Positions 12,815 through 40,150 are shown, numbered from the stretch's first letter. The stretch: 40,359 nucleotides of DNA from an uncultured Pseudomonadota bacterium (GCA_964454175.1 CAYVSA010000008.1:1-40359), one strand, 5' to 3'. Made by a program: numbers and translations. The notes: generated from the letters alone by a model not told the origin.

Positions 12815-12818
12815 AGTG

Positions 12819-14794: not shown

Positions 14795-15585
14795 CTGGTG
14801 ACGCCTCGCTCGGAATTTTTCAGGAAATCCACGAGGTGAGAGACTGCTTCGGATTCCGGGACATTGTGGCCGATCTCCTCCAGGGCCTTTTCCAGTGATA
14901 ACCCCGATTTAAAAAGGGTCCTGTAGGCGTTTTTCAGGCTGCTTATGGACTCCTCGCTCATACCGCTTCGCTTTAACCCTATTAAATTTAGACCGGAGAG
15001 CCTGGCTCGTACGCCCTGAACGGTGGTATAGGGGGCAACGTCCATATTTACGTAAGAGTGAGCAGCAAGCATGGCCAGGGAGCCTACCCTGCAGAACTGA
15101 TGCACACCCGACATCCCCCCCAGGAATGCATTTTTCTCCACGGTCACATGGCCGGCAAGGGTCGCCTGGTTGGCCATGATAACGCCATCCTCGAGGAAGC
15201 AGTCGTGAGCCACATGGCAGTAGGCCATTATGAGGATCCCGTTGCCAAGTCGGGTCACCATACCACCGCCCTCGGTCCCCTTGTTAATCGTAACGCATTC
15301 CCTGATAGTGTTCCCGTCCCCGATAATCAGCTCGCTGTCCTCACCTCCGAATTTGAGATCTTGAGGGTCCGCGCCCACTGAAGCGTACGGGAAAATACGG
15401 TTGTTCCTGCCTATTGTTGTTCTGCCGCCGATTACCACATGGGAATCAACGACCGTTTTAGAAGCTATCCTGACGTTGGGCCCTATTATCGAGAAGGGAC
15501 CGACACCGACATCCTCGTCAAGCTGAGCTCCAGGATGAATTAAGGCCTTCGGGTCCACAACAGGTTTTGTGTCATTTCCCGACAT
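14791..15585 (-). CDS. lpxA: UDP-GlcNAc O-acyltransferase
   Basis: Hexapeptide repeats, PQDLKF, IRECVTINKGT, HVAHDC, HQF motifs. Confidence 0.97.
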   Translation of the reverse strand: MSGNDTKPVVDPKALIHPGAQLDEDVGVGPFSIIGPNVRIASKTVVDSHVVIGGRTTIGRNNRIFPYASVGADPQDLKFGGEDSELIIGDGNTIRECVTINKGTEGGGMVTRLGNGILIMAYCHVAHDCFLEDGVIMANQATLAGHVTVEKNAFLGGMSGVHQFCRVGSLAMLAAHSYVNMDVAPYTTVQGVRARLSGLNLIGLKRSGMSEESISSLKNAYRTLFKSGLSLEKALEEIGHNVPESEAVSHLVDFLKNSERGVTR

Positions 15586-16067
15586 CAGCCATCCTTTTGA
15601 GAAGATTCTTCCGAATCATCCCTGTCAATGAGCATAGCCTTGATGTCAGCTTCGGCAACAAGCGAATCATCCACGAAAGCTTTGCAGGAAAACCCCCAAA
15701 CAGTTTTCCTGCTTCTGGTTATGACGACCTCGTTTCGGAGCTGGTCGCCGGGCACGACCGGCTTGCGGAATTTAACGTTGTCCATCCCGAGAAAATAAAC
15801 CACCTTGTTCTGAATCTCTTTTTCAAGATCTTCCCTGTTGGAAGTTGACAAAAAAGCCAGGATCCCGGCTACCTGAGCCATGGATTCGATAATAAGCACA
15901 CCAGGCATCACCGGATGGCCAGGAAAATGCCCCTGGAAAAACTCCTCGTTAAAGGTCACGTTCTTTATACCGACCCCTTTTTCGTTGGGAATAATTTCCA
16001 CTATCCTGTCCACCAGCAGGAAGGGGTACCTGTGGGGGAGTATTTCCATAATCCGCCTGACATCCAT
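15585..16067 (-). CDS. fabZ: 3-hydroxyacyl-ACP dehydratase
   Basis: LPHRYPFLLVD, FQGHFPGHPVMPGVLIIESMAQ, FRKPVVPGD motifs. Confidence 0.97.
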   Translation of the reverse strand: MDVRRIMEILPHRYPFLLVDRIVEIIPNEKGVGIKNVTFNEEFFQGHFPGHPVMPGVLIIESMAQVAGILAFLSTSNREDLEKEIQNKVVYFLGMDNVKFRKPVVPGDQLRNEVVITRSRKTVWGFSCKAFVDDSLVAEADIKAMLIDRDDSEESSQKDG

Positions 16068-17110
16068 TATCTTCCCTCTCCTTTGTCATCGTCCTCCAGT
16101 TTTGCGACCAACTTTTCCAGTTTCCTCATCTTTTTTCTCATGGTCCCCAGGCCGGCCGCGAGGACAGTTCTCTTGCGCCACTCGGCAGCGTCCGTAGCAG
16201 GGTATCCGGCGACACTGGAACCGGGTGGAACATCTTTAAGAACGACCGAGTTGGCAAGCAGTGTTGCACCCTCACCTACCTTGAGGTGACCAACAACACC
16301 TGATCGTCCGGCCATTGTGACTCCATCCTCGAGCGTTACGCTCCCGGCAAGACCAACGAATGAGACCAGGACGCAGTCCCTGCCTATCTTCACATTATGC
16401 CCAACCTGGATCAGGTTGTCTAACTTCGTCCCCTGCCCTATGATGGTCTGCCCCATTACAGCCCTGTCGACAGCACAGCATGCCCCGATCTCCACATCAT
16501 CTTCGATCAGGACTGTCCCGGCATGTATTATTTTCCTGCAGCTGCGCCCCTTTCTGGCGTAACCAAATCCATCGCTTCCAACAACTGATCCAGCGTGGAT
16601 CACGACCCTGTCACCAAGGATCACTCCCTCTTCCAGAGTTACATTGGGGTGGATCATACAATCGTCGCCAACCCTGGCACCGGGCCCAACATACGAACCC
16701 GGCATGAGTGTTGTCCTGTCCCCGATACAAGCGCCCTCGCTGACAACAACAGATGCTCCCACGCTCGGTTCACTGCCGATAGTTGCCTTTTCATGAACGA
16801 TCGCAGATGGACTGATGCCCGATGCCTTGTACTCTTTGCCATAAAAGATCTCCATGGCAGCGGCAAATCCAAGGTACGCGTCTTTTACCCTGATGAGGTT
16901 CTTTCCTTCTGCCTCTACGCCTCTGGAAGCAATGATGCCTCCGGCGTTTGTGGACTCGAGATCCTCGCGATACCTGGGATTGGAAAAGAAGGACAGGTCA
17001 CGGGGTCCAGCCTCCTCAAGGGACTTGATGTCTGTGACTTCAAGATTACCGTCCCCGACCACCTCTCCTTCCAGGAGGCCGGCAATTTTACGCAGTGTAA
17101 ACTTTCTCAA
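16067..17110 (-). CDS. lpxD: UDP-3-O-acylglucosamine N-acyltransferase
   Basis: GSDGFGY, DDVEIGA, TKLDNLIQVGHNV motifs and hexapeptide repeats. Confidence 0.96.
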   Translation of the reverse strand: MRKFTLRKIAGLLEGEVVGDGNLEVTDIKSLEEAGPRDLSFFSNPRYREDLESTNAGGIIASRGVEAEGKNLIRVKDAYLGFAAAMEIFYGKEYKASGISPSAIVHEKATIGSEPSVGASVVVSEGACIGDRTTLMPGSYVGPGARVGDDCMIHPNVTLEEGVILGDRVVIHAGSVVGSDGFGYARKGRSCRKIIHAGTVLIEDDVEIGACCAVDRAVMGQTIIGQGTKLDNLIQVGHNVKIGRDCVLVSFVGLAGSVTLEDGVTMAGRSGVVGHLKVGEGATLLANSVVLKDVPPGSSVAGYPATDAAEWRKRTVLAAGLGTMRKKMRKLEKLVAKLEDDDKGEGR

Positions 17111-26724: not shown

Positions 26725-27669
26725 TTACATGACCATGAAAGGGTATGGCACAAAGGTGAGCACCAGTATAGCAAGGGCGGCGAATCCCGCCTTTCTTCTG
26801 GGAGGATCAAGGTCGATGTGGGGCAGGAGTATCGGCGGATGACGCACGCCAAGGAAAAGAAGGAGCAGGGCCCATATGAGCCACCCTTCCCAGAAGAAAA
26901 CACCCATGAAGATAAGACCTATGTGTACCGCCCTGGCGATAATATCTGCCTTCTCCGGAAAGAGTGCCTTGGCAATGTGGCCCCCATCCAGCTGACCGAC
27001 GGGCAGCAGGTTAAGTGAGGTTATAAACATCCCGATCCATCCTGCGAACCCGATCGGGTGAAGGATCAGGGTCTGGCCCTCCGGCAGGGCCCCCACCAGC
27101 AGCTTACCCACCAGGTAGACTATCAGGCTGTCCCCCAGGGATATAGCTCCGGAATCCGCACCAGCGGGTACAGCAGAAGACAGGAAAAAACCAATAGCCA
27201 GTGCGGGTAGAGCCAGTACGAAACCAACCAGGGGGCCTGAAGCGCCGATGTCCAGCAGGGTTCTTCTGTCCCAGATAGCCCCCCTCATCCTGATCACTGC
27301 CCCGAAGGTGCCCACCAGGGAGGGTGCCGGGATAAAGTATGGCAGAGTGGCGTCTACCCTGTGCACTTTTGAGGTGAGATAGTGACCCATTTCGTGTCCC
27401 AGGAGGATGATCATTAACGTAACAGAAAAGAACAGGCCCTTGACCAGACCAGCCGGATCGCTGAGAGGATTTATACCCTGCTGCATGGCACCAGCCGCAG
27501 TAGTTGTAAGGAAAGTTACCAGGAAAAGAACAATGTGGATCTTAGGACTATCCTTGCGCGGTGTGACATCCTTGAGCCCTGACTGAGGGCCGTCTGGCAC
27601 CCTTTGGCCGCGCCTCCAGCTCCTGCCGCTGAAACCCATCCCCAGCATATGAGTGAATCCTGGACTCAT
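26725..27669 (-). CDS. Site-2 protease (M50) family intramembrane metalloprotease
   Basis: HEMGH and NLLPVGQLDGG motifs, multiple TM helices; start uncertain (ATG 27669 chosen). Confidence 0.9.
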   Translation of the reverse strand: MSPGFTHMLGMGFSGRSWRRGQRVPDGPQSGLKDVTPRKDSPKIHIVLFLVTFLTTTAAGAMQQGINPLSDPAGLVKGLFFSVTLMIILLGHEMGHYLTSKVHRVDATLPYFIPAPSLVGTFGAVIRMRGAIWDRRTLLDIGASGPLVGFVLALPALAIGFFLSSAVPAGADSGAISLGDSLIVYLVGKLLVGALPEGQTLILHPIGFAGWIGMFITSLNLLPVGQLDGGHIAKALFPEKADIIARAVHIGLIFMGVFFWEGWLIWALLLLFLGVRHPPILLPHIDLDPPRRKAGFAALAILVLTFVPYPFMVM

Positions 27670-27682
27670 CAACAGATCCTTT

Positions 27683-28396
27683 TCACCACAGGTCAAGAAG
27701 CCTGCCCAGGGCATCCAGGTCGCCGGAAAAATCCGGATCAGCAGCAGGCTCCTGTCTGTCGATCATGTGTGTTGTGGCAAGGAAAGTCTTCATGCCTGTC
27801 CTCCCTGCAGCCATATCATGTGACAGATCGTTGCCTGCCATCAGACACCGTTCGGGGGGAATGTGCAGAGCGCCTGCCAGATCTGTAAAATATCGTGCTT
27901 GAGGTTTACAAAACCGTGTGGATTCCATGTCTGCGATTATCTCGAAGTGCACCGGGGGGATCCTGCACCACTTCATCCTCTCAAGTATCGCTTCTCTCGG
28001 GAAAATGGGTGAGGTAGCGAGAACAAGCGCAATTCCCTCGGCAGAGGCTGCCTCGACGAGCCTGGCAGCGCCTGCTACAGGAGTTCCATGTCTCGAAAAC
28101 CCGGGGAATATGTCACGGTAAAAAGAACTGAACCTGTCTTTAGCTGTTGACTCAGGTACTCCTGTGGTGCTGGAAAAATATGAATAGAAGATATACTCAT
28201 TATTCTGTCCATCTTTCCTTGGAGCAACTGTGAGTTCCCTAATGCTTCCGGAAAGCCCTGCTTTGAAAAGGTCCCCGGGAACGAGGTCTTCAAAGTAGCT
28301 CACCATGGAATCAGTCATAGTCCGCAGAAAAAAAGAAACCTCGATGTCCAGAAGTGTCCCATCGAGGTCCAGAAGCAGCGCTTCTATTTTATTCAT
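27683..28396 (-). CDS. HAD-superfamily hydrolase
   Basis: LLDLDGTL motif I, ATSP, KP, GNDLSHD motif IV. Confidence 0.88.
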   Translation of the reverse strand: MNKIEALLLDLDGTLLDIEVSFFLRTMTDSMVSYFEDLVPGDLFKAGLSGSIRELTVAPRKDGQNNEYIFYSYFSSTTGVPESTAKDRFSSFYRDIFPGFSRHGTPVAGAARLVEAASAEGIALVLATSPIFPREAILERMKWCRIPPVHFEIIADMESTRFCKPQARYFTDLAGALHIPPERCLMAGNDLSHDMAAGRTGMKTFLATTHMIDRQEPAADPDFSGDLDALGRLLDLW

Positions 28397-28427: not shown

Positions 28428-29672
28428 TCAGGGTCTGAACTTCCTGAAGGCCACGCAGGAGTTGGTTCCGCCGAAGCCGAAAGTATTACTCATAGCAACC
28501 TCAACTTCTACATCCCTTGCCTCATTCGGCACATAATCCAGATCGCACTCGGGGTCGGGTTCCTCGTAGTTGATCGTGGGAGGGACCCGGTCGTTCTTCA
28601 CTGCAAGAACAGAGACGACGGCCTCAACGCCACCGGCTGCTCCAAGAAGGTGGCCGATCATGGATTTGGTTGAACTGACGGGCACGTTATAGGCAGCCTC
28701 ACCGAAAACGGATTTGATCGCCTGAGTCTCGTACATGTCATTGTAGTAGGTACTGGTACCGTGGGCATTGATGTAGCTCACGTCCTCAGGATCTATACCC
28801 GCATCCTTCAGGACATTTCGCATGCTCTGAGCCGCTCCGGTGCCCCCTTCCGACGGGGCGGTGATATGGAACGCGTCTCCCGACATACCGAAGCCTGAGA
28901 CCTCCGCAAGGATATCTGCGCCCCTTGCAAGTGCGGATTCCATCTCTTCCAGAACCAGGATGCCTGCCCCTTCCCCCATGACAAAACCGTCTCTACCCTT
29001 GTCGAAGGGACGGCTGGCACGCTCAGGTTCGTCGTTGCGCCTGGAAAGTGCTTTCATGGAGTTGAAACCGGCAAAAGCCAGCGGGGTAATGGTCGATTCA
29101 GCACCACCGGCGATCATAGCATCGGCATCGCCGTACTGGATCATCCTGAAGGCGTCACCAATGCAGTGTGTACCCGTCGCACAGGCCGTTACGACACAGC
29201 TGTTGGGGCCTTTGGCCCCCGTCATTATGGATATCTGGCCAGAGGCGAGGTTGGCGATAACCATGGGGATAAAGAAAGGCGAAATCCTCCTTGGGCCGGA
29301 CTTGGAGAGCACCTCGGCATATTTTTCGATATGCGGGAGACCTCCCAGACCAGCACCGACGCAGACGCCCACCCTTTCCTCGTTGGTCTCATCCACCGTA
29401 AGCCCTGACTGTTTGAGGGCTTCCATGGCAGCGAAGATGGCAAACACGATGAACGTGTCCATCTTCTTGAGTTCCTTCCGGTTGATCAGATCCTCGGGGT
29501 TCAGTCCCTTTACCTCGGCGGCGATGTGGGTACCAAATGCCTCCGGGTCAAATTTGGTTATGGGACCTGCACCCGATTTTCCCGCAAGGAGATTCTCCCA
29601 GCTTTCAGCCGCATCGAGACCGACGGGTGTTACAGCTCCTAACCCTGTGACTACAACTCTTCTCTTCACCAA
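28428..29672 (-). CDS. fabF: 3-oxoacyl-ACP synthase II
   Basis: [33 protein letters not shown] motifs. Confidence 0.97.
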
Positions 29673-29681
29673 ATTATCTCT

Positions 29682-29912
29682 TTAGCTTTTCTCCGTGATG
29701 TAATTTATAGCATCCTGAACGGTAAGGATCTTCTCTGCGTCCTCGTCCGGGATCTCCAGATCAAAGGACTCCTCAAAGGCCATCACCAGTTCCACGACGT
29801 CCAGAGAGTCAGCGCCCAGGTCATTGACGAAGTGGGAAGATGTATCGACGGTGTCGGCGTCCTGGTTGAGCTGTTCGGCAATAATCTCCTTCACTTTTGC
29901 TGTAACATCCAT
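29682..29912 (-). CDS. acpP: Acyl carrier protein
   Basis: [14 protein letters not shown] phosphopantetheine site; GGAGG RBS. Confidence 0.98.
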
Positions 29913-29957
29913 ATTTTCCTCCTTATAGGCCTGTTTACAGTTTCAGCTATTTACCGG

Positions 29958-30695
29958 TTACATGTACATTCCGCCGTTAACGGCGATTAATTGTCCTGTT
30001 ATATACGAGGCGTCATCTGACAAAAGGAACATCACTGCTGAAGATATATCGTCCGGAGTCCCCAGACGCGGTATGGGTATCTGGCTGATCAGCATGTCCC
30101 TCGCTTTTTCCGATATCGAGTCCGTCATTGCCGTTTGAATGAACCCGGGTGCCACGGCATTGACGGTAATATTCCTCTGTGCAACCTCTCTTGCAAGGGC
30201 TTTGGTAAAACCGACTACGCCGGCCTTGGAAGCTGCATAGTTGGTCTGCCCAATATTGCCCATGGCTCCGACAACGGAGGAAATATTTACTATCCGGCCG
30301 AACCTTTGTTTGATCATATGACTGACTGCCGTTCGGGAGCATAGATAAGTCCCGTTGAGATTAACATTTATCACCGCATTCCAGGCATCATCCTTCATTC
30401 TCATAAGAAGGCTGTCTCTGGTGATACCGGCGTTGTTGACAAGGAAGTCGATCCTTCCAAAGGTGTCGATGGTCTTGCCGATCAGTTCTTCCACGCTCGC
30501 GGCATCGGCGACGTTCACCTCGCAGGGGATCGCCTTTACGCCTGCAGCAGCAGCTTCCTCAGCAGCCTGCGCTGCTGTATCCAGGTTGATATCAGCAGAT
30601 ACGACGTTTGTCCCGGATGATGCCAGCGAAAGCAGGATGGCCTTGCCGATACCCTGCCCGCCGCCTGTAACTACACCAACTTTTTTCTCGCTCAT
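29958..30695 (-). CDS. fabG: 3-oxoacyl-ACP reductase
   Basis: TGGGQGIG, NNAGITRD, YAASK, VAPGFI motifs. Confidence 0.96.
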   Translation of the reverse strand: MSEKKVGVVTGGGQGIGKAILLSLASSGTNVVSADINLDTAAQAAEEAAAAGVKAIPCEVNVADAASVEELIGKTIDTFGRIDFLVNNAGITRDSLLMRMKDDAWNAVINVNLNGTYLCSRTAVSHMIKQRFGRIVNISSVVGAMGNIGQTNYAASKAGVVGFTKALAREVAQRNITVNAVAPGFIQTAMTDSISEKARDMLISQIPIPRLGTPDDISSAVMFLLSDDASYITGQLIAVNGGMYM

Positions 30696-31636
30696 TACCC
30701 ATTCTCCTCAGCCATTGCAGCGGCGGCATCGAACTCGTCCGGGATCCCGAAAGATACAGCCTGGGCGGTCTTTTCTATGCGCCGCATCAAACCCGACAGG
30801 ACCCTGCCCGGACCCAACTCCAGGAAGGCATTGACCTCTTCCCTTAACAGACGCCGGATAGTATCCTCCCACAGCACAGGAGAGGTTATCTGCCTGATCA
30901 GGGAGGGTGTTATCTCGGCCGCCGAGGTTAGCGAAGCCGCTTCAGCGTTGTTTATCAGAACGGTCTTCGGGCTGTCAATGTTAATGTCGCTCAGTACCTC
31001 CTGCATCCTGTCAGCAGCAGGCGTCATCAAGCTGCAGTGAAACGGCGCACTTACGGGAAGTAATACTCCCCGCCTGCCGCCCCGCTCCTTGAACAGGGCA
31101 AGCGCTTCTTCCACCCGGCTGCTGTTTCCTGCGATAACGATCTGTCCTGGAGAGTTGAAGTTAGCCGGCGTCACAAGGCCCTTTTCATCTGTTAGTTCTT
31201 CACAGATCGCTGTTATTTCTTTCCTGTCCAGACCCATCAGGGCGGCCATCGCTCCCCTGCCGGGCGGCACAGCGTCCTGCATGGCCCTTCCCCTCTCGCG
31301 CACGGCCATGAGGGCGTCGGCAAATGATATGCTGCCGGCTGCCACAAGTGCTGAATACTCTCCAAGGCTGTGGCCTGCTACGAACGCAGGAGTGAGTTCG
31401 GCCTGGTCATTCAGGGCCCTTAAGGCAGCAACGGACACCGCGAGTATTGCCGGCTGGGTATTTTCCGTGAGCATCAGGTCTTCTGCCGGCCCGGAAAAAC
31501 ACATTCTGCTTATGAAGAACCCCAGGGCGTCGTCTGCTTCCTCGAGTGTGTGTCTGGCCGAAGCTGACCATTCTGAAAGATCCTTACCCATTCCAACAAA
31601 CTGCGACCCTTGACCGGGAAAGAGAAGCGCCAGCAT
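30695..31636 (-). CDS. fabD: Malonyl-CoA:ACP transacylase
   Basis: FPGQGSQ, GHSLGEY, VSAPFH, ELGPG motifs; start overlaps the etfA stop (TGATG). Confidence 0.96.
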   Translation of the reverse strand: MLALLFPGQGSQFVGMGKDLSEWSASARHTLEEADDALGFFISRMCFSGPAEDLMLTENTQPAILAVSVAALRALNDQAELTPAFVAGHSLGEYSALVAAGSISFADALMAVRERGRAMQDAVPPGRGAMAALMGLDRKEITAICEELTDEKGLVTPANFNSPGQIVIAGNSSRVEEALALFKERGGRRGVLLPVSAPFHCSLMTPAADRMQEVLSDINIDSPKTVLINNAEAASLTSAAEITPSLIRQITSPVLWEDTIRRLLREEVNAFLELGPGRVLSGLMRRIEKTAQAVSFGIPDEFDAAAAMAEENG

Positions 31637-32841
31637 CAGGAACCGCTCCTCGCCTGTTTGATAGTCCTCACAAGATCGGGAATAACATCGAAAACATCTC
31701 CAACCAGACCGTAGGTCGCAACGTCAAAGATCGGAGCGTCAGGGTCCTTGTTGATGGCTACGATAATTTCTGATGACTGCATCCCCGCAAGATGTTGAAC
31801 CGCACCTGATATTCCGCAGGCAATGTAGAGCTTGGGCTGAACCGTCTTGCCGGTCTGTCCGACCTGGTGAGAATAGGGCACCCACCCGGCATCGACAACC
31901 GACCTCGATGCTCCCACAGCGCCGTCCAGCAGCACAGCCAGTTCCCCTATCAGTCCGAATCCCTCGGGATCTTTCATGCCCCGTCCGCCCGAAACAATAA
32001 CATCGGCCTCGGCAAGGTTTACGGTGTCCATGATCTCCTCGACAACCTCCAGGACCTGCGCACCCCTGTTGCCATCCAGGTCTCCGATACCCTGAAGAAT
32101 GTGTACCTGCCCCTCGCGGCTGTCGTCGGGTTTTGAGGGTATCAGGACCTTGGGCCTGACGGTTGCCATCTGCGGCCTGTGATCGGGGCAAATGATCGTT
32201 GCCATGATGTTCCCGCCAAAAGCGGGCCGGGTCTGAAGCAGGTCGCCTGTCTCACCGTCGATGGAAAGTGCGGTACAGTCAGCAGTCAGCCCCGCATCCA
32301 CCTTGGTGGCAACAGATGGCATGAAGGATCTGCCCATGGAAGTCGCCCCGGCCAGGACCACTGAAGGCTTTCTGTCTCTGATAAGTCTGGAAAGGGCCAT
32401 AGCGTAGGGGCCGTCATTAAACATGGCCAGATCCGGGTCATCCACGTACAGCACTTCGTCGGCCCCGAAGCGGATGAGTTCTCTTGCTGATTTTTCCATG
32501 TCGTGGCCCAGAAGAACGGCAGTCAGCTTCTCACTGCTCGTGTCGGCCAGCTTCCTGCCCTCCCCCAGAAGCTCCATGGTTACGCCCGCTACTTTTCCGG
32601 AGCGCTGTTCTGCAAAGATCCAGACACCGCTGAACGAACCCTTGTCGATCACTGGAACTGCGGTGTCGGATTCCTCGTTTATTATCGCCTCTTCCGGGCA
32701 GGCTTCGATACAGGCCATGCACATGGTACATTTTTCGTTTATCCACGCCTTGCCGTCCACCATTTCGATAGCATCAAATGGACACGACTCGAGGCAGGCT
32801 TCACAGCCCGTACACATATCCTTAATGACAACTACCGCCAT
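31636..32841 (-). CDS. etfA: Electron transfer flavoprotein large subunit with N-terminal 2x[4Fe-4S] ferredoxin domain
   Basis: CTGCEACLESCP and CTMCMACIEACP; GLTADCT, RPAFGG, SGGRG, QVGQTGK, GISGAVQH motifs. Confidence 0.95.
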   Translation of the reverse strand: MAVVVIKDMCTGCEACLESCPFDAIEMVDGKAWINEKCTMCMACIEACPEEAIINEESDTAVPVIDKGSFSGVWIFAEQRSGKVAGVTMELLGEGRKLADTSSEKLTAVLLGHDMEKSARELIRFGADEVLYVDDPDLAMFNDGPYAMALSRLIRDRKPSVVLAGATSMGRSFMPSVATKVDAGLTADCTALSIDGETGDLLQTRPAFGGNIMATIICPDHRPQMATVRPKVLIPSKPDDSREGQVHILQGIGDLDGNRGAQVLEVVEEIMDTVNLAEADVIVSGGRGMKDPEGFGLIGELAVLLDGAVGASRSVVDAGWVPYSHQVGQTGKTVQPKLYIACGISGAVQHLAGMQSSEIIVAINKDPDAPIFDVATYGLVGDVFDVIPDLVRTIKQARSGS

Positions 32842-33011
32842 AACATTTCGTCTCCCGTTGCTGAAATTTTCCTGATCTTATATTTGCCTGTATGTGATCC
32901 GGGTTATCAAAGCAGGATGATCTCCCCGTCCGGAACGCAGGAAAGAATTATCAAATGTCATGAGATCCGGCAGACTGATCAAAAAACACTCCAGCCCTCG
33001 GATCTGCAGGA

Positions 33012-33797
33012 TCAGACGAGCTTCTGTTCTCTGAGGGCCGCGACCAGCTTTCCCGCTAGTTCCCCGGACTCACCTTCCCACTTCACCCCGGTTCTCTTGA
33101 GGTTCGGGGAAAAGATCTTTACAACCCGTGTGGGAGAGCCGTCCAGGCCGATCTTGATATCTTCAACATCGAGGTCTGCTCGAGTGAGTTTCACGATTTC
33201 GCATTTCCTGGACCTCATCTTACCCTTGAGGGACGGGATCCTCGGCTCGTTGATCTCCTTGACAACCGTTATCAGACCGGGGACGGGCAAACTGAGGACT
33301 TCGTATCCGTCCTCGTACATACGCTCAAGGATTATCCCCTGGTCCTTGACTTCTCTGATCTTCCTGACAAAGGCGACATAAGGTATGCCCAGCTGTTCCG
33401 CAAGGGAAGGCCCTACCTGCGCGGTATCTCCATCAATAGCCTGCTTCCCGCACAGGACAAGGTCGAAATCACCCATATTGCGAATGGCAGCAGCGAGTGT
33501 ATAGGAAGTTGCCCACGTGTCGGCCCCGGCAAATGCCCTGTCAGTGACCAGGAAGGCCTCGTCGGCTCCAAGGGAAATCGCCTCGCGGAGGGCATCTTCC
33601 GCCTGGGGCGGTCCCATTGACAGGACTTTAACTGTACCGCCGTGCTCCTCCCTGAGCCTTATTGCCTCTTCAATGGCATAAAGATCAAAGGGGTTGACGA
33701 TGCTCTCGACACCCTCCCTGACCAGCGTATTGGTTTCAGGATTGATCTTGACTTTCGTCGTATCCGGAACCTGCTTGATGCAAACTACAATTTCCAT
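33012..33797 (-). CDS. etfB: Electron transfer flavoprotein small subunit
   Basis: CIKQVPDT, NPFDLYAIE, DRAFAGADTWAT, GKQAIDGDTAQVG motifs. Confidence 0.95.
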   Translation of the reverse strand: MEIVVCIKQVPDTTKVKINPETNTLVREGVESIVNPFDLYAIEEAIRLREEHGGTVKVLSMGPPQAEDALREAISLGADEAFLVTDRAFAGADTWATSYTLAAAIRNMGDFDLVLCGKQAIDGDTAQVGPSLAEQLGIPYVAFVRKIREVKDQGIILERMYEDGYEVLSLPVPGLITVVKEINEPRIPSLKGKMRSRKCEIVKLTRADLDVEDIKIGLDGSPTRVVKIFSPNLKRTGVKWEGESGELAGKLVAALREQKLV

Positions 33798-33894
33798 CTA
33801 AAACTCCTGCTCATCAGTTGTCAGGAATTGACTTTCCGCACCATGAGTCCGGTCCATTTGTTTTCCGGTGTCCACGGTTGCCTGTTTACCAACA

Positions 33895-33922
33895 TGGGTC
33901 CTGGTACCTGGGACAAGGGCCG
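33895..33922. repeat. Short degenerate 7-nt array (4 units)
   Basis: tgggtcc tggtacc tgggaca agggccg just downstream of the acyl-CoA dehydrogenase stop. Confidence 0.4.
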
Positions 33923-33932
33923 AGTTGCATTA

Positions 33933-35093
33933 TCACAACTTCTTTTTCGCATATTCCTTGATGAGAGCTGCACCTATGACGTTCCTCTGGATCTGGTTCG
34001 TTCCCTCGTAGATCTGAAGGATCTTTGCATCCCTCATCATCTTCTCGACCGGGTATTCCCGCATGTAGCCATAGCCGCCCAGGACCTGAACGGCGTCAAT
34101 GGTAACTTTCACTGCAGTGTCCGCCCCGAGAACCTTGACCATTGCAGACGATTTTGAAACATCGGATGCCCCACTGTCGACATAACGAGCAACGGCCATT
34201 GTCAGGGCCCTGGCAGCCTCGGTCTGAATAGCCATATCCGCCAGCATGTGCTGGATAGCCTGGAATGAGATTATCGGCTGGCCGAACTGATGGCGCTCCC
34301 GGGCGTAATCAACAGCAACGTCCAGCGCTGCCTGGGAGACACCTACGCCCTGAGCGGAAATACCAGGCCTTGAAAGGTCCAGGGTCTTCATTGCGATGAG
34401 AAACCCCATACCCTCACGACCGATCCTGTTCTCCTCCGGTATCCTGCAGTCTTCGAAAACCAGTTCCCTGGTAGCTGAGCACCTGATGCCCATCTTTTTT
34501 TCTTTCTTTCCAAAGGAAAAACCCGGCGTACCCTTCTCAACGATGAACGCGGAGGCTCCCCTTGCTCCCTTTTTCTTGTTGGTGATCGCGATAACGGTAT
34601 ATATCTCGGCTTCGCCGCCGTTGGTGATCCACTGTTTGGTCCCATTCAGTACGTAAGAGTCACCATCTTTTACAGCAGTAGTCCGGACTCCACCGGCATC
34701 GCTCCCCGCATCGGCTTCAGTGAGGCCGAAGGCACCAAGGCGCTCGCCGGAAGCTATCTGGGGCAGGTACTTCTTCTTCTGTTCCTCTGTCCCAAAGAGA
34801 ATAATGGGATAGGACCCAAGGCCGGAGGCTGCAAAACTCACAGACACGCCAAGACATCCGCGGCTGAGTTCTTCCACAGCGATAACGCTCTCCACAACAC
34901 CGCCGCCGAAACCCCCGTACTCTTCCGGAATGTGCAGCCCGAAAAGATCAGACTGAGCACAGGCCTTAACAGCATCCCACGGGAACTCCTCCGTTTGATC
35001 CAGTTCTGCCCGGACGGGAAGAATTTTTTCCTCGGTGATCTGCCTGGCGATCTCCTGGACAGCTTGCTGTTCCTCTGTAAGAAAGTAGTCCAT
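33933..35093 (-). CDS. Acyl-CoA dehydrogenase family protein (butyryl-CoA dehydrogenase/CarC-like)
   Basis: FGLTEADAGSD, NGTKQWITNG, RHQFGQPI, GGYGY, IYEGTNQIQR (catalytic Glu); GGAGGAGG RBS. Confidence 0.95.
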   Translation of the reverse strand: MDYFLTEEQQAVQEIARQITEEKILPVRAELDQTEEFPWDAVKACAQSDLFGLHIPEEYGGFGGGVVESVIAVEELSRGCLGVSVSFAASGLGSYPIILFGTEEQKKKYLPQIASGERLGAFGLTEADAGSDAGGVRTTAVKDGDSYVLNGTKQWITNGGEAEIYTVIAITNKKKGARGASAFIVEKGTPGFSFGKKEKKMGIRCSATRELVFEDCRIPEENRIGREGMGFLIAMKTLDLSRPGISAQGVGVSQAALDVAVDYARERHQFGQPIISFQAIQHMLADMAIQTEAARALTMAVARYVDSGASDVSKSSAMVKVLGADTAVKVTIDAVQVLGGYGYMREYPVEKMMRDAKILQIYEGTNQIQRNVIGAALIKEYAKKKL

Positions 35094-35165
35094 ATCCTCC
35101 TCCGTTGTCTGGCTGGTTCAATCTAATCCGATATTCAAGGATCTTTAACCCTGGACTCTAAAATA

Positions 35166-36143
35166 TCACCATCTGATCAGGGCCGCACCCCAGGTTAGCC
35201 CGCCCCCGAAGGCTTCCAGAAGTACAGTGTCTCCCCCCTTTATCAGGCCTTTTCGTACAGCTTCGTCCAGAGCCAGGGGTACTGAAGCCGCAGAGGTATT
35301 GCCGTGTCTCTGGATGGTCTGTACGACCTTGTCTTCAGAAAGCTTCAGCTTTTTGGCCGTAGCCTTGATTATCCTCAGATTGGCCTGATGGGGTACCAGA
35401 AAATCTATGTCCTCTTCGGTGAGCCCATTACTTTCAAGAGCTTCATCGACAACCTCACTCAGCTTTTTGACGGCCACCCTGAAGGTTTCGTGGCCTTTCA
35501 TTTTTACGGTATTGAGCTTCTTGTCGATAACCTCGTAGGATGGCGGCATTCTGGATCCGCCGCCTGGCGCAAAGAGAAGGTCCATCAGCGATCCATCGCA
35601 GTGCAGATGGGTTGAAACTACCTGTGAATCGCCCTCACCCGGGGCCAGAACGGCCGCTCCGGCTCCGTCGCCGAACAGGACACATGTCGATCTGTCGTCC
35701 CAGTTGATATACCGTGAGAGGACCTCCGCCCCCACAACGAGAATGTTCCTGTACATGCCTGTCCTGATGAACTGATCACCAACCGAGATCCCGTAAATAA
35801 ACCCGGTGCAGGCAGCTTCAAGATCAAAAGCTGCCGCTTTCGCTGCACCAATGTTTTTCTGGACCAGCGCGGCAGTGGAGGGGAAAAAATGATCCGGCGT
35901 TATAGTTGCGACGATGATCAGATCAAGGTCAAGCGGCCCGATCCCGGCCATTTCCAGAGCTCTTCTGGAAGCTTCTGTGGCCAGATCGGATGTCGCCTGT
36001 TCCGGCGAAGCAATGTGCCGCTGCTCTATCCCTGTTCTTGATACTATCCACTCTTCTGTTGTGTCTACCATCTTCACCAGGTCGGCGTTCGTGAGTACTT
36101 TTTCGGGAAGGTAGGATCCCGTTCCTGCGATCATGCTCCTCAC
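35166..36143 (-). CDS. fabH: 3-oxoacyl-ACP synthase III
   Basis: AACTGF, LFGDGAGA, PHQAN, GNTSAAS, FGGG motifs. Confidence 0.97.
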   Translation of the reverse strand: MRSMIAGTGSYLPEKVLTNADLVKMVDTTEEWIVSRTGIEQRHIASPEQATSDLATEASRRALEMAGIGPLDLDLIIVATITPDHFFPSTAALVQKNIGAAKAAAFDLEAACTGFIYGISVGDQFIRTGMYRNILVVGAEVLSRYINWDDRSTCVLFGDGAGAAVLAPGEGDSQVVSTHLHCDGSLMDLLFAPGGGSRMPPSYEVIDKKLNTVKMKGHETFRVAVKKLSEVVDEALESNGLTEEDIDFLVPHQANLRIIKATAKKLKLSEDKVVQTIQRHGNTSAASVPLALDEAVRKGLIKGGDTVLLEAFGGGLTWGAALIRW

Positions 36144-37258
36144 GATTTATCCTTCTCACCCGTACCGTCTGCGACTTCAGCCTGCTCAACAAGCCCGAGA
36201 TCAAGTTTCTTGTCCTTGAGATGTTCTATGACCTGGTGAACTTTCTCTCCGACAGTCTGTTTCAGGTCGGCGCTGCTTTCCACTTCCTGTCTCACGCTCT
36301 CAGAGACCCGCGCACGAGCATAGCCGGCGGTAGTGATAATGGCATTCTTGATCGCACGGGCGTTGGATCGCCCGTGAGAGATCAGGCCCAGGCCATCGAT
36401 CCCCAGAAGAAGCGCTCCCCCGTATTCAGCGTAGTCGAACCTGCGTTTGAACTTTCTCAGTGCAGGCCGCATGAATAGGTAACCGAACCTGCCGAGAAGA
36501 GAGGACTTGATCTCGTCCTTGAGGCGCATGCCCAGGGTGTAAACGACACCCTCTGCCACCTTGAGCGCAACATTCCCCACGAAGCCGTCGCAGACAACTA
36601 CGTCCACCTTATCCTGAAAAATATCCCCCCCTTCGACGTTCCCAATGAAGTTTAGATCGCTTTTCATCAGAACACCGAAAGTGGTTCGTACGACCTCGTT
36701 ACCCTTGCCAGCCTCTTCACCGTTGCTCAGCAGCCCCACCCTGGGGCTGTTGATATTCATGGTTTTTTTTGCCAGAGCATTTCCCATGAAAGCAAACTGG
36801 ACCAGGTTGTGGGACTTGCAGTCCACATTGGCGCCCGCATCCAGCAGGACCACGCTTCCACTATGTGTCGGGATGATTGAGCCGATAGCAGGCCTCTCAA
36901 CATTGGGCAGCAGTCCAAGGACAAAGATCCCTGCGAGCATCGCCGCACCTGAGTTGCCAGCGGAGATAGCAGCGTTGGCCTCGCCTGATTTAACCAGCTC
37001 GAATGTCCTCAGGATGGAAGAATCACGCTTTTTCGCCAGCGCTTTTCGCGGCGTTTCATCCATGCGGATGACTTGCGAAGCGTGCTTTATGAGAATACGC
37101 CCTTCCGGGAAACTGGCCCGCTGGACCATCGGCTCCAGGATCTCACGGTCACCGACGAGGATCACGTTGCACTCGTGATCTCTCACCGCAAGGACCGCAC
37201 CCTCTAAAACGGCCTGGGGGGCAAAATCTCCCCCCATTGCATCGATGGCTATTTTCAC
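36140..37258 (-). CDS. plsX: Phosphate acyltransferase PlsX
   Basis: DAMGGD, AGNSGA, DAGANVD, CDGFVGN, HGRS motifs. Confidence 0.96.
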   Translation of the reverse strand: MKIAIDAMGGDFAPQAVLEGAVLAVRDHECNVILVGDREILEPMVQRASFPEGRILIKHASQVIRMDETPRKALAKKRDSSILRTFELVKSGEANAAISAGNSGAAMLAGIFVLGLLPNVERPAIGSIIPTHSGSVVLLDAGANVDCKSHNLVQFAFMGNALAKKTMNINSPRVGLLSNGEEAGKGNEVVRTTFGVLMKSDLNFIGNVEGGDIFQDKVDVVVCDGFVGNVALKVAEGVVYTLGMRLKDEIKSSLLGRFGYLFMRPALRKFKRRFDYAEYGGALLLGIDGLGLISHGRSNARAIKNAIITTAGYARARVSESVRQEVESSADLKQTVGEKVHQVIEHLKDKKLDLGLVEQAEVADGTGEKDKS

Positions 37259-37281
37259 AACAGCGACTCAGAGCTCAAGGG

Positions 37282-37464
37282 TCAGACCTCCTCAACCTCT
37301 ATCACCTTACGCCCCCGGTAAAAACCGCAGTGGGAACAGACCCTGTGAGGCATCTTGGGTTCTCCGCACTTTGCACAGACGGAGCTTTTCGGCATCTCCA
37401 GGCTATCGTGGGACCGCCTTCTCCTCGTGCGTGATTTGGATGTTTTCTGCTTCGGTACCGGCAT
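37282..37464 (-). CDS. rpmF: 50S ribosomal protein L32 (zinc-binding, four Cys)
   Basis: MPVPKQKTSKSR...CAKC...PHRVCSHCGFY; AGGAG RBS before ATG 37464. Confidence 0.97.
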   Translation of the reverse strand: MPVPKQKTSKSRTRRRRSHDSLEMPKSSVCAKCGEPKMPHRVCSHCGFYRGRKVIEVEEV

Positions 37465-37527
37465 TTCGACTCTCCTTCTATTCAGCCCGCAAAACAAGCG
37501 GCGCTGTATTGGCTGAAAATGTTCATT

Positions 37528-38046
37528 CTAGTCGTCTTTTTTCCTGAGACCCGCAAGGGCGTTCCATCTCGGGTCGATGTTCTCGCCGCCGCAGGTGCAC
37601 TCACCACCATCTGCGACCCTGCCGCACCTGGGGCAGAGGCCCTGACATTTTTCTGAACACAGGGGCTTCATGGGCAGCGACAATCTAATCTGCTCTTCGA
37701 CCAGATGTCCAAGATCGAGGGCATCGCCGTCGAAGTACTCCACGTTCAGGTCGTCAGATGCCAGCTCCATGTCGTCTCCCCTCCGCTCTGCGGAAAGGGG
37801 GCGCAGCTCAACCAACACCTCTTCAGCCACAGACCGGAAAATATCCTCCAGACACCGCGAGCACTGCAGACGCACAGAGCCCACGACTGAGCCTTTGACC
37901 AGAAGTTGAGAGCCTATTCTGTCAACCCTTAATGCGGCGGTTATCGGTCCTGCAGCGAGGATCGATTCCGCCTCAGGGCTATCCGGGTCCAGCTTAAACT
38001 CAACGTTCAGCCCCTCATGGGGAATTTCACCAAGCCGGAGGATCAT
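37528..38046 (-). CDS. yceD: YceD/DUF177 family protein
   Basis: CSRCL, PMKPLCSEKCQGLCPRCG, DPRW motifs; directly upstream of rpmF. Confidence 0.92.
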   Translation of the reverse strand: MILRLGEIPHEGLNVEFKLDPDSPEAESILAAGPITAALRVDRIGSQLLVKGSVVGSVRLQCSRCLEDIFRSVAEEVLVELRPLSAERRGDDMELASDDLNVEYFDGDALDLGHLVEEQIRLSLPMKPLCSEKCQGLCPRCGRVADGGECTCGGENIDPRWNALAGLRKKDD

Positions 38047-38465: not shown

Positions 38466-39305
38466 ATGAGATCAAGAATTCTTTTTATCCTCTTTGTCTG
38501 CACATTTCTTCTGGTCCAGGCCCAGGCGTCCATGGCCGCCTTTGTTATACAGCAGCAGGGCACTATGAGCCTGAATGAAACCCCGCTGGACATTGCGGTG
38601 TCGTCAGACGGGCAGTGGTCTTTTGTTCTAACTTCAAAGGGGAACATCCACATTCTTGCAGCCAATGGCGCACCGGTACAGGTCCTCGCCGGCGCTGAAG
38701 GCTACGACAGGATCCAGTTCGCCGGCGGTAACAGGCTGGTACTGACCAGCAGTTCAAATAAGGAACTCAAGATCATAGTTCTGGACCAACTGCATGAACT
38801 GGACATCTCCAACTCACCCTACAGGGGACCATCAGATGCACGGGTATGGGTGGCTGTTTTTGACGACTTTCAGTGACCGTACTGCGCGAGGCTCATGCCT
38901 CTACTCGAGCAGGTGCTCGACAAGTACCCAAAGGATGTCAAGCTGATATACAAGAGCTTTCCCATCGCCAACCACAAGTATGCGAGGCAGGCGGCAGCCA
39001 CGGCTCTGGCTGCCTGGAAACAGGGGAAATTCTGGCAGGTCCATGATCTTTTTTTCAAAAACTTCAACAAGCTCAACGATACCGAGATCAGAAAAATCGC
39101 TCAGGGTCTTAAACTGGACATGAAAAAACTTGACAGAGACATAAAAAGCAACGAGATACAGAGTATGATAGACAGGGATATACAGGAAGGGCAAAGACAC
39201 GGCGTCAGGGGGACCCCTACCATATTCATAAATGGCAAGCTGCTCCAGCAGCGTTCCCTTGCCGGGTTCTCAGCGCTGATCGACAAAGAGCTTGGCAAAA
39301 AATAA
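38466..39305 (+). CDS. Secreted DsbA-like thioredoxin-fold selenoprotein (U137-P-Y-C140), 279 aa
   Basis: ORFs 38466-38876 and 38895-39305 are in the same frame, separated by TGA 38874-38876 which reads FDDFQ-U-PYC; signal peptide; GVRGTPT cis-Pro motif; AGGAGG RBS; SECIS-like hairpin downstream. Confidence 0.88.
38905..38920 (+). promoter_or_regulatory. Candidate bacterial SECIS hairpin
   Basis: TCGAGC-AGGT-GCTCGA perfect 6-bp stem with a G-containing loop starting 34 nt after the TGA; a second hairpin GAGGC-TCAT-GCCTC lies at 38888-38901. Confidence 0.6.
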
Positions 39306-39364
39306 TCGTGATTCGGTTCTTTTGAGCACCAGGGAGATTAGAGCCCTAACGGAGGCAATGACAG

Positions 39365-40150
39365 ATGAGAGCTGCAGTTAGAGTTGCCACTCTGATAATA
39401 ATATTTCTGGGGATCGCTGCCCTTCATCCTGTACTTCTCCAGGCATTTACAGGCGAGGGATGCTCTGAGGGGGCCTGCTCTGATTGCCACAGTCTGAAGG
39501 TCGACGAAGCGTCAAAGCTCCTCCAGGGGGTCGTGGAGAAGGTTGACCAGGTGGAATTTTCCGAAGTTCCGGGCCTCTGGGTCGTCCACGCCCGGGACAA
39601 GGGCAGGAAAGGCCTCGTGTACATTGATTTTTCCAAAGAATACCTGATATCAGGGCAAGTTATCAGAATATCCAACCGACAGAACATTACACGCAAGAAG
39701 TTCAGTGAGTCCGTGAGAGTGGATCCCGCCGTTATTCCCATTTCCGATGCCCTTGTGCTGGGCAGACGTAAAGCAAAGCATCAGGTTATTGTATTTACCG
39801 ATCCCCAGTGCCCATTTTGCAAGAAGCTGCATCCCGAACTTGTCAGAGCTGTTAAAATGGACCCGGAGGTGGCGTTTTTCATTAAACTCTACCCACTGCT
39901 GTCGATCCACCCCGACTCAGGCAGGATATCCCGCAGTATTGCCTGCTCCAGGTCAATTGATGTGCTGGAAGACAGTTTTGCCGGAAGGCCTGTCCCTGAT
40001 CCAGTATGCGAGACGGATATAGTGGAGAAAAACCGGGACCTGGCAAGTAAACTGGGAATAAACTCAACCCCGACCATGGTTCTTTCTGACGGACGGGTCG
40101 CCACGGGCGCCATGACGGCGGAAGAGATCCTGAAGTTGATATATAAATGA
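39365..40150 (+). CDS. dsbC: DsbC-family thiol:disulfide isomerase with N-terminal CxxCH motif
   Basis: Signal peptide; CSDCH; dimerisation-domain pattern (VPGLW...YIDFSKEYLISG); FTDPQCPFC; GINSTPT. Confidence 0.85.
   Translation: MRAAVRVATLIIIFLGIAALHPVLLQAFTGEGCSEGACSDCHSLKVDEASKLLQGVVEKVDQVEFSEVPGLWVVHARDKGRKGLVYIDFSKEYLISGQVIRISNRQNITRKKFSESVRVDPAVIPISDALVLGRRKAKHQVIVFTDPQCPFCKKLHPELVRAVKMDPEVAFFIKLYPLLSIHPDSGRISRSIACSRSIDVLEDSFAGRPVPDPVCETDIVEKNRDLASKLGINSTPTMVLSDGRVATGAMTAEEILKLIYK

Follow-up and report, generated by a model that had tools for sequence, protein, structure and literature searches.

A bifurcating-type dehydrogenase-Etf module in a FAS II operon as a candidate enoyl-ACP reductase

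Within a 40,359-nt stretch of DNA from an uncultured Pseudomonadota bacterium (the window, meaning the whole stretch analysed), genes for an ACAD-family flavoenzyme (Acd) and two Etf subunits lie between fabH and fabD. Sequence comparisons suggest that acd-etfB-etfA encodes a Bcd/CarCDE-type flavin-based bifurcating complex belonging to the FAS II operon, and we take this complex to be a serious, if as yet unproven, candidate for an enoyl-ACP reductase of a new kind. Our best reading, offered tentatively, is that of an NADH-driven, ferredoxin-reducing enoyl-ACP reductase. What we observe directly are the gene identities, an Etf of bifurcating type, a ferredoxin domain fused to EtfA and a tightly spaced operon membership that is conserved across phyla. 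No earlier description of a fab-embedded acd-etfBA module was found in the literature searched.

The module and its fab operon

Eleven genes on the minus strand follow one another in the order yceD-rpmF-plsX-fabH-acd-etfB-etfA-fabD-fabG-acpP-fabF, as assigned from the ORF list using Pfam and NCBIfam. They are listed here together with the ferredoxin domain of EtfA and the separately located fabZ.

37528..38046, minus strand: yceD (DUF177), usual leader of the rpmF-plsX-fab cluster (Pfam PF02620, 106 bits)
37282..37497, minus strand: rpmF, ribosomal protein L32 (Pfam PF01783, 90 bits)
36140..37258, minus strand: plsX, phosphate acyltransferase (TIGR00182, 361 bits, cut-off 243)
35166..36143, minus strand: fabH, beta-ketoacyl-ACP synthase III (TIGR00747, 447 bits, cut-off 292)
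33933..35093, minus strand: acd, ACAD-family flavoenzyme of 386 aa, proposed catalytic subunit (Pfam PF02771, PF02770, PF00441)
33012..33797, minus strand: etfB, small Etf subunit of bifurcating type (PDB matches LctB, CarD, 5ol2_B, 4kpu_B)
31636..32841, minus strand: etfA, large Etf subunit of 401 aa, ferredoxin-fused (PDB CarE 6fah_A; Pfam ETF, ETF_alpha)
32674..32835, minus strand: N-terminal 2x[4Fe-4S] ferredoxin domain of EtfA, residues 3-56 (Pfam Fer4, Fer4_9, Fer4_10)
30695..31636, minus strand: fabD, malonyl-CoA:ACP transacylase (TIGR00128, 341 bits)
29958..30695, minus strand: fabG, 3-oxoacyl-ACP reductase (TIGR01830, 325 bits, cut-off 298)
29682..29912, minus strand: acpP, acyl carrier protein with DSL motif, Ser36 (TIGR00517, 107 bits; alignment)
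28428..29672, minus strand: fabF, beta-ketoacyl-ACP synthase II (TIGR03150, 661 bits)
15585..16067, minus strand: fabZ, within an lpxD-fabZ-lpxA-lpxI-lpxB cluster (TIGR01750, 197 bits; Pfam)

The TGA of etfA and the ATG of fabD have base 31636 in common (TGATG), a 1-nt overlap. The fabH-acd spacer is 72 nt long with a ribosome-binding site, GGAGGAGGA, at its end, and the acd-etfB and etfB-etfA spacers measure 135 and 170 nt; a pattern scan of the minus strand found no terminator-like site in any of the three. The co-orientation of the genes from plsX to fabF, the etfA-fabD overlap and the 72-bp spacer free of a clear terminator had all been put forward in a sequence-only reading of this DNA, and each of them holds.

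The product of FabZ is enoyl-ACP, which a reductase has to consume. Among the 42 ORFs of the 40-kb window, a count that refers to the window and not to the whole genome, Pfam detected no FabI-, FabK-, FabL- or FabV-like protein: the only SDR is FabG, and neither an NMO (FabK-type) nor a FabV-type protein is encoded. This agrees with the earlier inventory, in which the window held FabH, FabD, FabG, FabF, ACP and FabZ but none of the four known reductases. The chemistry of the module fits the one FAS II step that has no gene in the window.

Recurrence and neighbouring genes

The sequence-only reading had proposed a survey of synteny, and we examined 80 loci from public genomes, with 6-kb flanks, that carry the closest relatives of Acd (63-84% identity). 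FAS II genes are present at 49 of the 80 loci, a recurrence of the fab-module arrangement far beyond chance, and at 45 the module directly abuts a FAS II gene (within 400 bp), on the upstream side in 39 and the downstream side in 33. The fab-linked loci span at least four named phyla (Thermodesulfobacteriota, Nitrospirota, Omnitrophota and Margulisiibacteriota), the lineages involved being mostly anaerobic. Intergenic gaps of fab-linked modules are often only 2-30 bp, for example 2 bp between etfA and fabG at locus L046 and 15 and 18 bp at L032. Gene orders include fabH-acd-etfBA followed by fabD or fabG, plsX-acd-fabD, rpmF-acd-etfBA-fabG and, in Omnitrophota, fabF-(rnc)-acd-etfBA. A fab-linked Acd is usually accompanied by EtfB and a ferredoxin-fused EtfA, an adjacent etf being truly absent at 11 such loci.

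The remaining 31 loci have no FAS II gene nearby, and 17 of these also lack an adjacent etf. They belong to Nitrospiraceae, Bacillota (where acd-etfB-etfA stands alone), Actinomycetota, Spirochaetota, Elusimicrobiota, PVC phyla and Brocadiia; eight phyla beyond the fab-linked ones hold Acd orthologues without fab linkage. The Acd tree tracks taxonomy with gene contexts mixed within it, which argues for orthologues and not for recent transfer.

Classical clostridial bcd/etf genes sit with crt, hbd and thl. In contrast to such butyrate-pathway genes, the Acd family has no crotonase, 3-hydroxyacyl-CoA dehydrogenase or thiolase among the 253 neighbour ORFs scanned (115 + 62 + 76, out of 378 candidates), and none occurs among the 42 window ORFs, suggesting that Acd has no CoA pathway nearby to supply it with substrate. 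The 253 neighbours likewise contain no CoA-transferase and no SDR-type or FabV-type reductase candidate. In the fetched flanks, a FabK/FabX-like NMO gene stands beside the module at two of the 80 loci. At L032 (Margulisiibacteriota), acd-etfBA shares its fab cluster with an NMO gene located between acpP and fabF, whose FabK-model score is 180 bits (cut-off 453) and whose best PDB matches are FabX (143 bits) and FabK (127-137 bits). At L055 (Spirochaetales), a FabK-like gene directly follows acd (FabK model 256 bits, C. difficile FabK 205 bits). At these loci, then, the module has a rival for the reductase role and, judging from these genes, can apparently coexist with a likely known enoyl-ACP reductase.

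Subunits and related enzymes

Acd belongs to the ACAD superfamily, with its three-domain fold (N-terminal alpha, middle beta, C-terminal alpha): all three Pfam domains exceed their cut-offs, and the AF2 model (pLDDT 90) matches ACAD structures with Foldseek TM scores of 0.94-0.95. Among solved structures, its nearest relatives act on short and medium chains, C. difficile Bcd being the closest (PDB 5ol2_C; 54% identity, 421 bits). The Glu of the YEGT motif, E363, which we take to be the catalytic base, is part of an E363-G364-T365 stretch that is conserved without exception in the 44 family sequences compared and aligns with the 5ol2_C motif. Unlike clostridial Bcd, the Acd family stays under the NCBIfam equivalog cut-offs; the best model for Acd is AcrC (457 bits, cut-off 640), and the other acryloyl-CoA reductase equivalogs, AcrB (245 against 475) and AcrA (358 against 600), are not reached either. 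Relatives of Acd are annotated at source as butyryl-CoA dehydrogenase. When the family was compared with 109 more distant ACAD representatives, only five positions were near-invariant in the family yet rare in the others, and no clear ACP-specific signature emerged. Acd has no obvious new docking surface except for a short basic C-terminal tail, and a search for family members fused to ACP or FAS domains gave none.

Both subunits place the Etf in the bifurcating class by similarity. EtfB scores 221-256 bits against five bifurcating Etfs in the PDB (241-256 for LctB, CarD, 5ol2_B and 4kpu_B) versus 81-96 bits against non-bifurcating ones (about 95 for the human and Paracoccus proteins), and for EtfA the corresponding ranges are 292-410 and 134-164 bits. 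An Etf of this kind suits the reductive direction. The ferredoxin domain of EtfA carries two CxxCxxCxxxC motifs, as in CarE, and at least one such motif occurs in the first 90 residues of 43 of the 45 EtfAs from related loci, the remaining two being fragments or having a miscalled start. The domain had been overlooked in the sequence-only reading.

The closest overall parallel in subunit composition (ACAD, EtfB and EtfA) is provided by CarCDE, the caffeyl-CoA reductase-Etf of Acetobacterium woodii (PDB 6FAH). The alignment of EtfA with CarE spans residues 1-394 (410 bits) and includes the N-terminal two-[4Fe-4S] domain, and EtfB matches CarD with 252 bits. CarCDE reportedly carries out electron-bifurcating enoyl-thioester reduction, a reaction like that proposed here. 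Acd, however, resembles CarC only distantly (313 bits, rank 22 of its PDB matches), the CarCDE genes form a phenylacrylate-respiration operon instead of a FAS II operon, and the substrate proposed for the window module is ACP-bound. The clostridial Bcd/EtfAB complexes (C. difficile 5OL2; A. fermentans 4L1F and 4KPU) share the same chemistry and resemble the module in their Etf as well (EtfA 318 bits to 5ol2_A, EtfB 247 bits to 5ol2_B), but their EtfAs have no ferredoxin domain, the 5ol2_A alignment beginning at residue 73 of the window EtfA.

The reaction proposed for the module is that of FabI, FabL and FabV (SDR) and of FabK (FMN, NMO family). In S. pneumoniae-type clusters, fabK lies just before fabD, and the window module likewise is placed just ahead of fabD. 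Acd, as an ACAD, has no sequence or fold relationship to these reductases, which in contrast to the module are single-subunit enzymes that take NAD(P)H directly; to our knowledge, none of the four reduces ferredoxin. ACAD-family enzymes with the fold of Acd and substrates tethered to 4'-phosphopantetheine do exist, namely prolyl-ACP dehydrogenase (4IRN), RedW, PigA and MbtN, and we count this in favour of an ACP substrate for Acd. Acd scores 220 bits against 4irn and 278, 253 and 79 bits against RedW, PigA and MbtN, the last three far under the NCBIfam cut-offs of 500-700. Unlike the enzyme proposed here, these dehydrogenases are oxidative and belong to secondary metabolism, and we know of no use of a bifurcating Etf by any of them.

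Proposed reaction and alternatives

In the proposed scheme, NADH would reduce the bifurcating FAD of EtfB by hydride transfer, and one electron would then run downhill through the FAD of EtfA to that of Acd. After two rounds, the Acd FAD would reduce the FabZ-made trans-2-enoyl thioester on ACP, and the other, low-potential electron would leave through the two fused [4Fe-4S] clusters of EtfA and reduce ferredoxin. An ACP-bound substrate is pure supposition on our part; we further infer the direction of the reaction and ferredoxin as second acceptor, with the module acting as either the sole or an additional reductase. The enoyl/acyl couple lies near -10 mV, NAD at -320 mV and ferredoxin near -420 mV, so that the reaction would be strongly favourable in the reductive direction only. 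If the scheme is correct, lipid synthesis would give back reduced ferredoxin and the large driving force of enoyl reduction would not be wasted. The persistence of the FAS II linkage despite varied placement favours this NADH-driven, ferredoxin-reducing reading, as does the conservation of Acd, whose median identity to the window (68%) is the highest in the cluster. The sequence-only reading had already suggested an enoyl-ACP reductase, and synteny, the bifurcating Etf and the lack of beta-oxidation or butyrate-pathway neighbours in the scan speak for that suggestion; it is weakened by the FabK-like genes at L032 and L055, by the 31 orthologous loci away from fab genes and by the missing ACP signature in Acd. 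The 11 fab-linked loci with no etf beside acd, the chain-length class of the nearest solved relatives and the lack of ACP or FAS fusions also count against it.

Less probable, though deserving weight, is a conventional enzyme acting at the CoA level, either an enoyl-CoA reductase or a short-chain acyl-CoA dehydrogenase and in both cases with a bifurcating Etf. It would serve as a housekeeping redox device for making reduced ferredoxin or trimming or producing short acyl-CoA primers, and would owe its place beside fab genes solely to regulation shared with lipid and growth functions. Acd has 47-54% identity to established CoA enzymes (the Bcd of C. difficile, A. fermentans and M. elsdenii) and almost no family-specific invariant residues; the unrelated housekeeping neighbourhoods at 31 of the 80 loci, the solitary modules of Bacillota and the source annotation of the relatives point the same way. 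Such an enzyme would, however, have no evident route to enoyl-CoA given the scan of 253 neighbour ORFs, and gaps of 2-30 bp among genes handling ACP thioesters in at least four phyla are hard to explain by co-regulation alone. The provision of acyl-CoA primers for FabH, raised earlier as an alternative, loses ground specifically because the module follows plsX or rpmF without an intervening fabH at 17 loci.

We consider it unlikely that the module runs in reverse, dehydrogenating acyl-ACP and perhaps isomerising it too; it would then oxidise medium-chain acyl-ACP to the trans-2 enoyl form, with isomerisation to cis-3 following, and so start anaerobic unsaturated fatty-acid synthesis where FabA/FabB are missing. 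ACADs are oxidative by nature, and intrinsic enoyl isomerase activity has been reported for some. Conserved fab-operon membership would serve this role equally well, the FabK-like genes at L032 and L055 would be expected, and FabA, FabB and FabM are all absent from the 40-kb window, which has only FabZ and FabF. Reversal, however, would be unfavourable at the potentials given above, since reduced ferredoxin and NAD+ would have to draw electrons from the enoyl/acyl couple at about -10 mV, and the bifurcating-type, ferredoxin-fused Etf argues against it; no isomerase signature was identified in Acd. A precedent is FabX of Helicobacter pylori (PDB 7E1Q-7E1S), which uses a flavin and a [4Fe-4S] cluster to interconvert acyl-ACP and enoyl-ACP in FAS II by backtracking dehydrogenation (PMC8626469). 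FabX differs from the module in being an oxygen-dependent, NMO-family FMN protein, oxidative with isomerisation and unrelated to ACADs or Etf, and the NMO protein of L032 is as FabX-like as it is FabK-like, so that two enzymes would be present there for one step.

Very improbable, in our view, is the absence of any functional link, with the module being a selfish or neutral insert carried in an ancestral fab cluster. Its variable position and the loss of linkage in many lineages would be compatible with such an origin, but the association holds over several gene orders and phyla and the GC content is even throughout the region. Acd is moreover the most conserved gene product of the cluster, with a median identity to the window of 68% versus 47-58% for FAS II proteins and 54-57% for EtfA and EtfB, and is thus more tightly constrained than the FAS genes are.

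The module and the FAS II operon in the window

The sequence-only reading had placed co-oriented genes for an acyl-CoA dehydrogenase (Acd) and two Etf subunits between fabH and fabD of a fatty-acid synthesis (FAS II) operon, and the ORF list, Pfam and NCBIfam confirmed both the gene order and the orientation.

28428-38046 (-): operon of yceD, rpmF, plsX, fabH, acd, etfB, etfA, fabD, fabG, acpP and fabF
33933-35093 (-): acd
33012-33797 (-): etfB
31636-32841 (-): etfA
2300-17110 (-): lipid A/LPS-core block
38466-40150 (+), divergent: 136-aa ORF with no Pfam match, DsbA-like thioredoxin-fold protein and DsbC-like protein

For PlsX, FabH, FabD, FabG, ACP and FabF alike, at least one NCBIfam model of the respective family matches above its cut-off. 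As proposed, the etfA stop codon overlaps the start codon of fabD, with one base in common (TGATG). The 72-nt spacer between fabH and acd carries a strong ribosome-binding site at its end and, in agreement with the earlier claim, gave no terminator in a simple pattern scan, a result of little weight because that scan was not enriched over shuffles of the window (7 promoter-like sites versus 6.0 expected and 14 terminator-like sites versus 9.7). No Rfam family or terminator-like site was detected in the acd-etfB spacer (135 nt, 33798-33932) or the etfB-etfA spacer (170 nt, 32842-33011), Rfam and tRNA scans of the window returned no matches, and the GC content of the region is uniform. Most related loci have far shorter spacers at these two positions, often below 60 nt. 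After fabF, the window encodes a HAD-family hydrolase and an M50 peptidase (26725-28396, -); in 18 related deltaproteobacterial-type loci fabF is followed by rpiB, and then often by a cytidine/deoxycytidylate deaminase-family gene and nrdR or glyA.

Among the 42 ORFs scanned in these 40 kb, FabG is the sole SDR and there is no FabK-type (NMO) or FabV-type protein, so that the reported lack of a known enoyl-ACP reductase in the window holds. The fabZ gene lies 12 kb off in the lipid A cluster. This block comprises two heptosyltransferase genes, kdtA, genes for a DUF3108/AMIN protein and a HAD phosphatase, lpxL, lpxK, a DUF374 gene, msbA, lpxB, lpxI (not lpxH), lpxA, fabZ and lpxD, with ompH, bamA, a lolCDE-like ABC pair and lysS upstream, a gene content that marks the organism as an LPS-bearing diderm.

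Recurrence of the link to FAS II genes

We searched 185,579 species genomes with Acd and confirmed 593 relatives. The best 80 of them (63-84% identity) were retained, and the window proteins were mapped onto their loci by tblastn. One or more FAS II genes (plsX, fabH, fabD, fabG, acpP or fabF) were present in 49 of these best 80 of 593 loci, which shows that the fab-linked arrangement recurs, and absent from the fetched stretch in the remaining 31. In 45 of the same 80, at most 400 bp separate the module from a FAS II gene on its strand (upstream neighbour in 39, downstream neighbour in 33), frequently across gaps of 2-30 bp. By context, the best 80 of 593 divide into loci with FAS II and etf genes (35), FAS II genes only (14), etf genes only (14) and neither (17), where three of the FAS-only loci (L001, L062 and L077) are modules cut by a contig end.

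Several gene orders recur. Nitrospirota, Desulfobulbia, Thermodesulfobacteria and Margulisiibacteriota show the order plsX-fabH-acd-etfB-etfA-(fabD)-fabG-acpP-fabF, Desulfobacca and Syntrophobacter relatives show rpmF-acd-etfBA-fabG, and Omnitrophota show fabH-fabD-fabG-acpP-fabF-(rnc)-acd-etfBA. The intervening rnc gene, encoding RNase III (5102-5923 in L028, 1824-2672 in L030 and 4728-5408 in L075), means that in Omnitrophota-type loci the module comes after the whole fab cluster rather than interrupting it. A clade including Syntrophorhabdaceae and Syntrophaceae has plsX-acd-fabD-fabG-acpP-fabF without fabH or etf, and its electron partner and FabH are therefore encoded elsewhere or replaced. 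Loci of this kind are L004, L013, L018, L021, L025, L034 and L047, with acd at about 6001-7160 in most; fabD was not detected in L004.

Loci without a fab link have housekeeping surroundings, such as hpt-queD-tldD-acd in Nitrospiraceae, or genes for biotin carboxylase, a carboxyltransferase/BCCP protein and BioY ahead of acd-etfBA in one Actinomycetota locus. The Nitrospiraceae orthologues (L006, L007, L012, L015 and L058, upstream of acd at 6001, with L010 and L014 similar) are 69-74% identical and lack etf and fab genes; their conserved context consists of phosphoribosyltransferase, PTPS (QueD-like) and TldD/PmbA genes with acd, into which a LuxR-type regulator and a PilZ gene are inserted in some loci.

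A tree of 81 Acds (maximum likelihood, quick search, LG+G4) grouped the proteins broadly by phylum with gene contexts intermixed, from which it follows that they are orthologues and that the fab link was gained or lost repeatedly. The fab link is not a recent mobile insertion. Acd is also the most conserved gene of the cluster, with a median identity to the window of 68% across the related loci; the FAS II genes reach 47-58%, EtfA and EtfB 54-57%. The operon link of the module to FAS II is strong and ancient, and that it should carry no function at all seems very improbable.

Acd and its Etf partners

Acd (386 aa) contains all three ACAD domains according to Pfam. Among proteins of solved structure it comes closest to the butyryl-CoA dehydrogenase subunit of Bcd/EtfAB from C. 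difficile (5ol2_C; 421 bits, 54% identity), followed at 43-49% identity by A. fermentans Bcd, M. elsdenii BCAD, bacterial short-chain enzymes and mammalian SCAD/MCAD, and its AlphaFold2 model (pLDDT 90) superposes on these structures with TM scores of 0.94-0.95. The top NCBIfam model was acryloyl-CoA reductase AcrC, at 457 bits and thus under the cut-off of 640. A representative library contained no full-length representative above 55% identity, which makes the Acd family a subclade of a broad Bcd-like cluster, and an ESM Atlas search returned generic ACAD clusters only. Comparison of 44 members with 109 distant representatives yielded five near-invariant family-specific positions (Y3, A88, Q154, E161 and K197). 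Members also share a short conserved basic C-terminal extension (...KE-Y/x-xxKK; window 33933-33960), missing from most of the more distant ACAD representatives, and have a median net charge of -2 versus -5 in the latter. The five positions and the basic tail are too little to make a case for an ACP docking site. No fusion of the Acd family to a PP-binding or FAS domain occurred among the 120 matches listed of 763 longer proteins; the fusions among the matches listed were Acd-Etf and Acd-rubredoxin, none above 51% identity to the Acd of the window.

EtfB scored 241-256 bits against LctB, CarD and the EtfB subunits of C. difficile and A. fermentans, and only about 95 bits against human and Paracoccus ETF. 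EtfA (401 aa) aligned from end to end with CarE, a subunit of the caffeyl-CoA reductase-Etf complex of A. woodii (410 bits), and carries an N-terminal domain with two 4Fe-4S motifs (residues 3-56; Pfam Fer4 families), a feature absent from the sequence-only reading. The same ferredoxin domain is present in 43 of 45 associated EtfAs, the exceptions being one fragment and one doubtful start call. The matches of all three proteins, together with this domain, identify the module by homology as a putative Bcd/CarCDE-type complex. In such complexes NADH jointly reduces an enoyl thioester and ferredoxin.

Proposed function and competing explanations

Of all steps in fatty-acid synthesis by bacteria, enoyl-ACP reduction varies most; it is a classical drug target, and four unrelated enzyme classes are known for it. 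The module has its three parts in place and its operon membership is conserved, and the most likely reading, which we put forward tentatively, is that the complex reduces the trans-2-enoyl-ACP made by FabZ. NADH would reduce a bifurcating FAD on EtfB, from which one electron would pass via the EtfA FAD and the Acd FAD to the enoyl thioester, and the second via the fused ferredoxin domain to ferredoxin. We infer that the substrate is ACP-bound, that the reaction runs in the reductive direction and that ferredoxin is the co-acceptor.

The module can coexist with a probable known reductase and is thus not always the sole one, as two loci illustrate. The fab cluster of L032 (Margulisiibacteriota) contains acd-etfBA and, between acpP and fabF, an NMO-family gene (11197-12171, +) that scored 180 bits against the FabK NCBIfam model, far under the cut-off of 453; its best solved matches were H. 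pylori FabX (143 bits; 7E1Q, identified as this enzyme in PMC8626469) and several FabKs (127-137 bits). In L055, from a Spirochaetales MAG, acd lacks an adjacent etf, and a clearly FabK-like gene lies 25 bp downstream of it (6001-8220, +, for both genes; 256 bits against the FabK model, 205 bits against FabK of C. difficile). The two genes stand outside any fab cluster. Of the other 378 neighbour ORFs, 253 were compared with Pfam (115 + 62 + 76, the third batch restricted to ORFs of 220-470 aa), and these 253 included no SDR-type enoyl reductase or FabV. Redundancy of reductases is common among bacteria, and coexistence in L032 and L055 does not refute a reductase role for the module.

Such coexistence would be well accounted for if the module were a FabX-like backtracking dehydrogenase for unsaturated fatty acids, but, judged by midpoint potentials, the reaction is strongly favourable when it runs reductively and unfavourable in reverse, for which reason we rank this explanation below enoyl-ACP reduction and consider it quite unlikely. 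A role at the CoA level, merely co-regulated with the fab genes, is somewhat unlikely and keeps its weight because the Acd protein looks so ordinary. No crotonase, 3-hydroxyacyl-CoA dehydrogenase, thiolase or CoA-transferase was found in the same 253 of 378 neighbour ORFs, which places the Acd family outside any recognisable CoA pathway, and this speaks most strongly against the module acting as an ordinary Bcd. The alternative raised earlier, that the module supplies primers to FabH, is weakened by 17 of the best 80 of 593 loci, in which plsX or rpmF precedes the module and fabH does not intervene.

Enoyl-ACP reduction by the module can be extended, as a possible and still more tentative proposal, to a fifth class of enoyl-ACP reductase with a new mechanism, a flavin-based bifurcating assembly of ACAD, EtfB and ferredoxin-fused EtfA that would couple every FAS II elongation cycle to ferredoxin reduction by NADH, be widespread in energy-limited anaerobes and feed low-potential electrons into energy metabolism. 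Its carriers would include Thermodesulfobacteriota, Nitrospirota, Omnitrophota and Margulisiibacteriota, among others. Its parts are members of known families, and it is their setting in the operon and the substrate put forward that would set the module apart, in function, as a new enoyl-ACP reductase class. The full texts searched contain no description of a fab-operon ACAD/Etf module or of such a module serving as enoyl-ACP reductase, and an earlier mention in subscription journals or the main review of reductase diversity is possible. If the Etf-dependent, ferredoxin-reducing form exists, it would bring in a class whose mechanism differs completely, give a physiological reason for "butyryl-CoA dehydrogenase/EtfAB" in many anaerobes without a butyrate pathway, require correction of metagenome readings of such genes as butyrate fermentation or beta-oxidation, and place energy conservation by electron bifurcation within biosynthesis itself. 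If the enzyme is CoA-specific instead, the strong, ancient FAS II operon link would still have to be explained.

In Actinomycetota MAGs, a BioY biotin transporter gene precedes acd-etfBA (L072:1944-5776, -; L048:1136-1849, -), and L072 also encodes a biotin carboxylase and a carboxyltransferase/BCCP protein upstream of the module. These biotin genes hint at a further, weaker link to fatty-acid synthesis.
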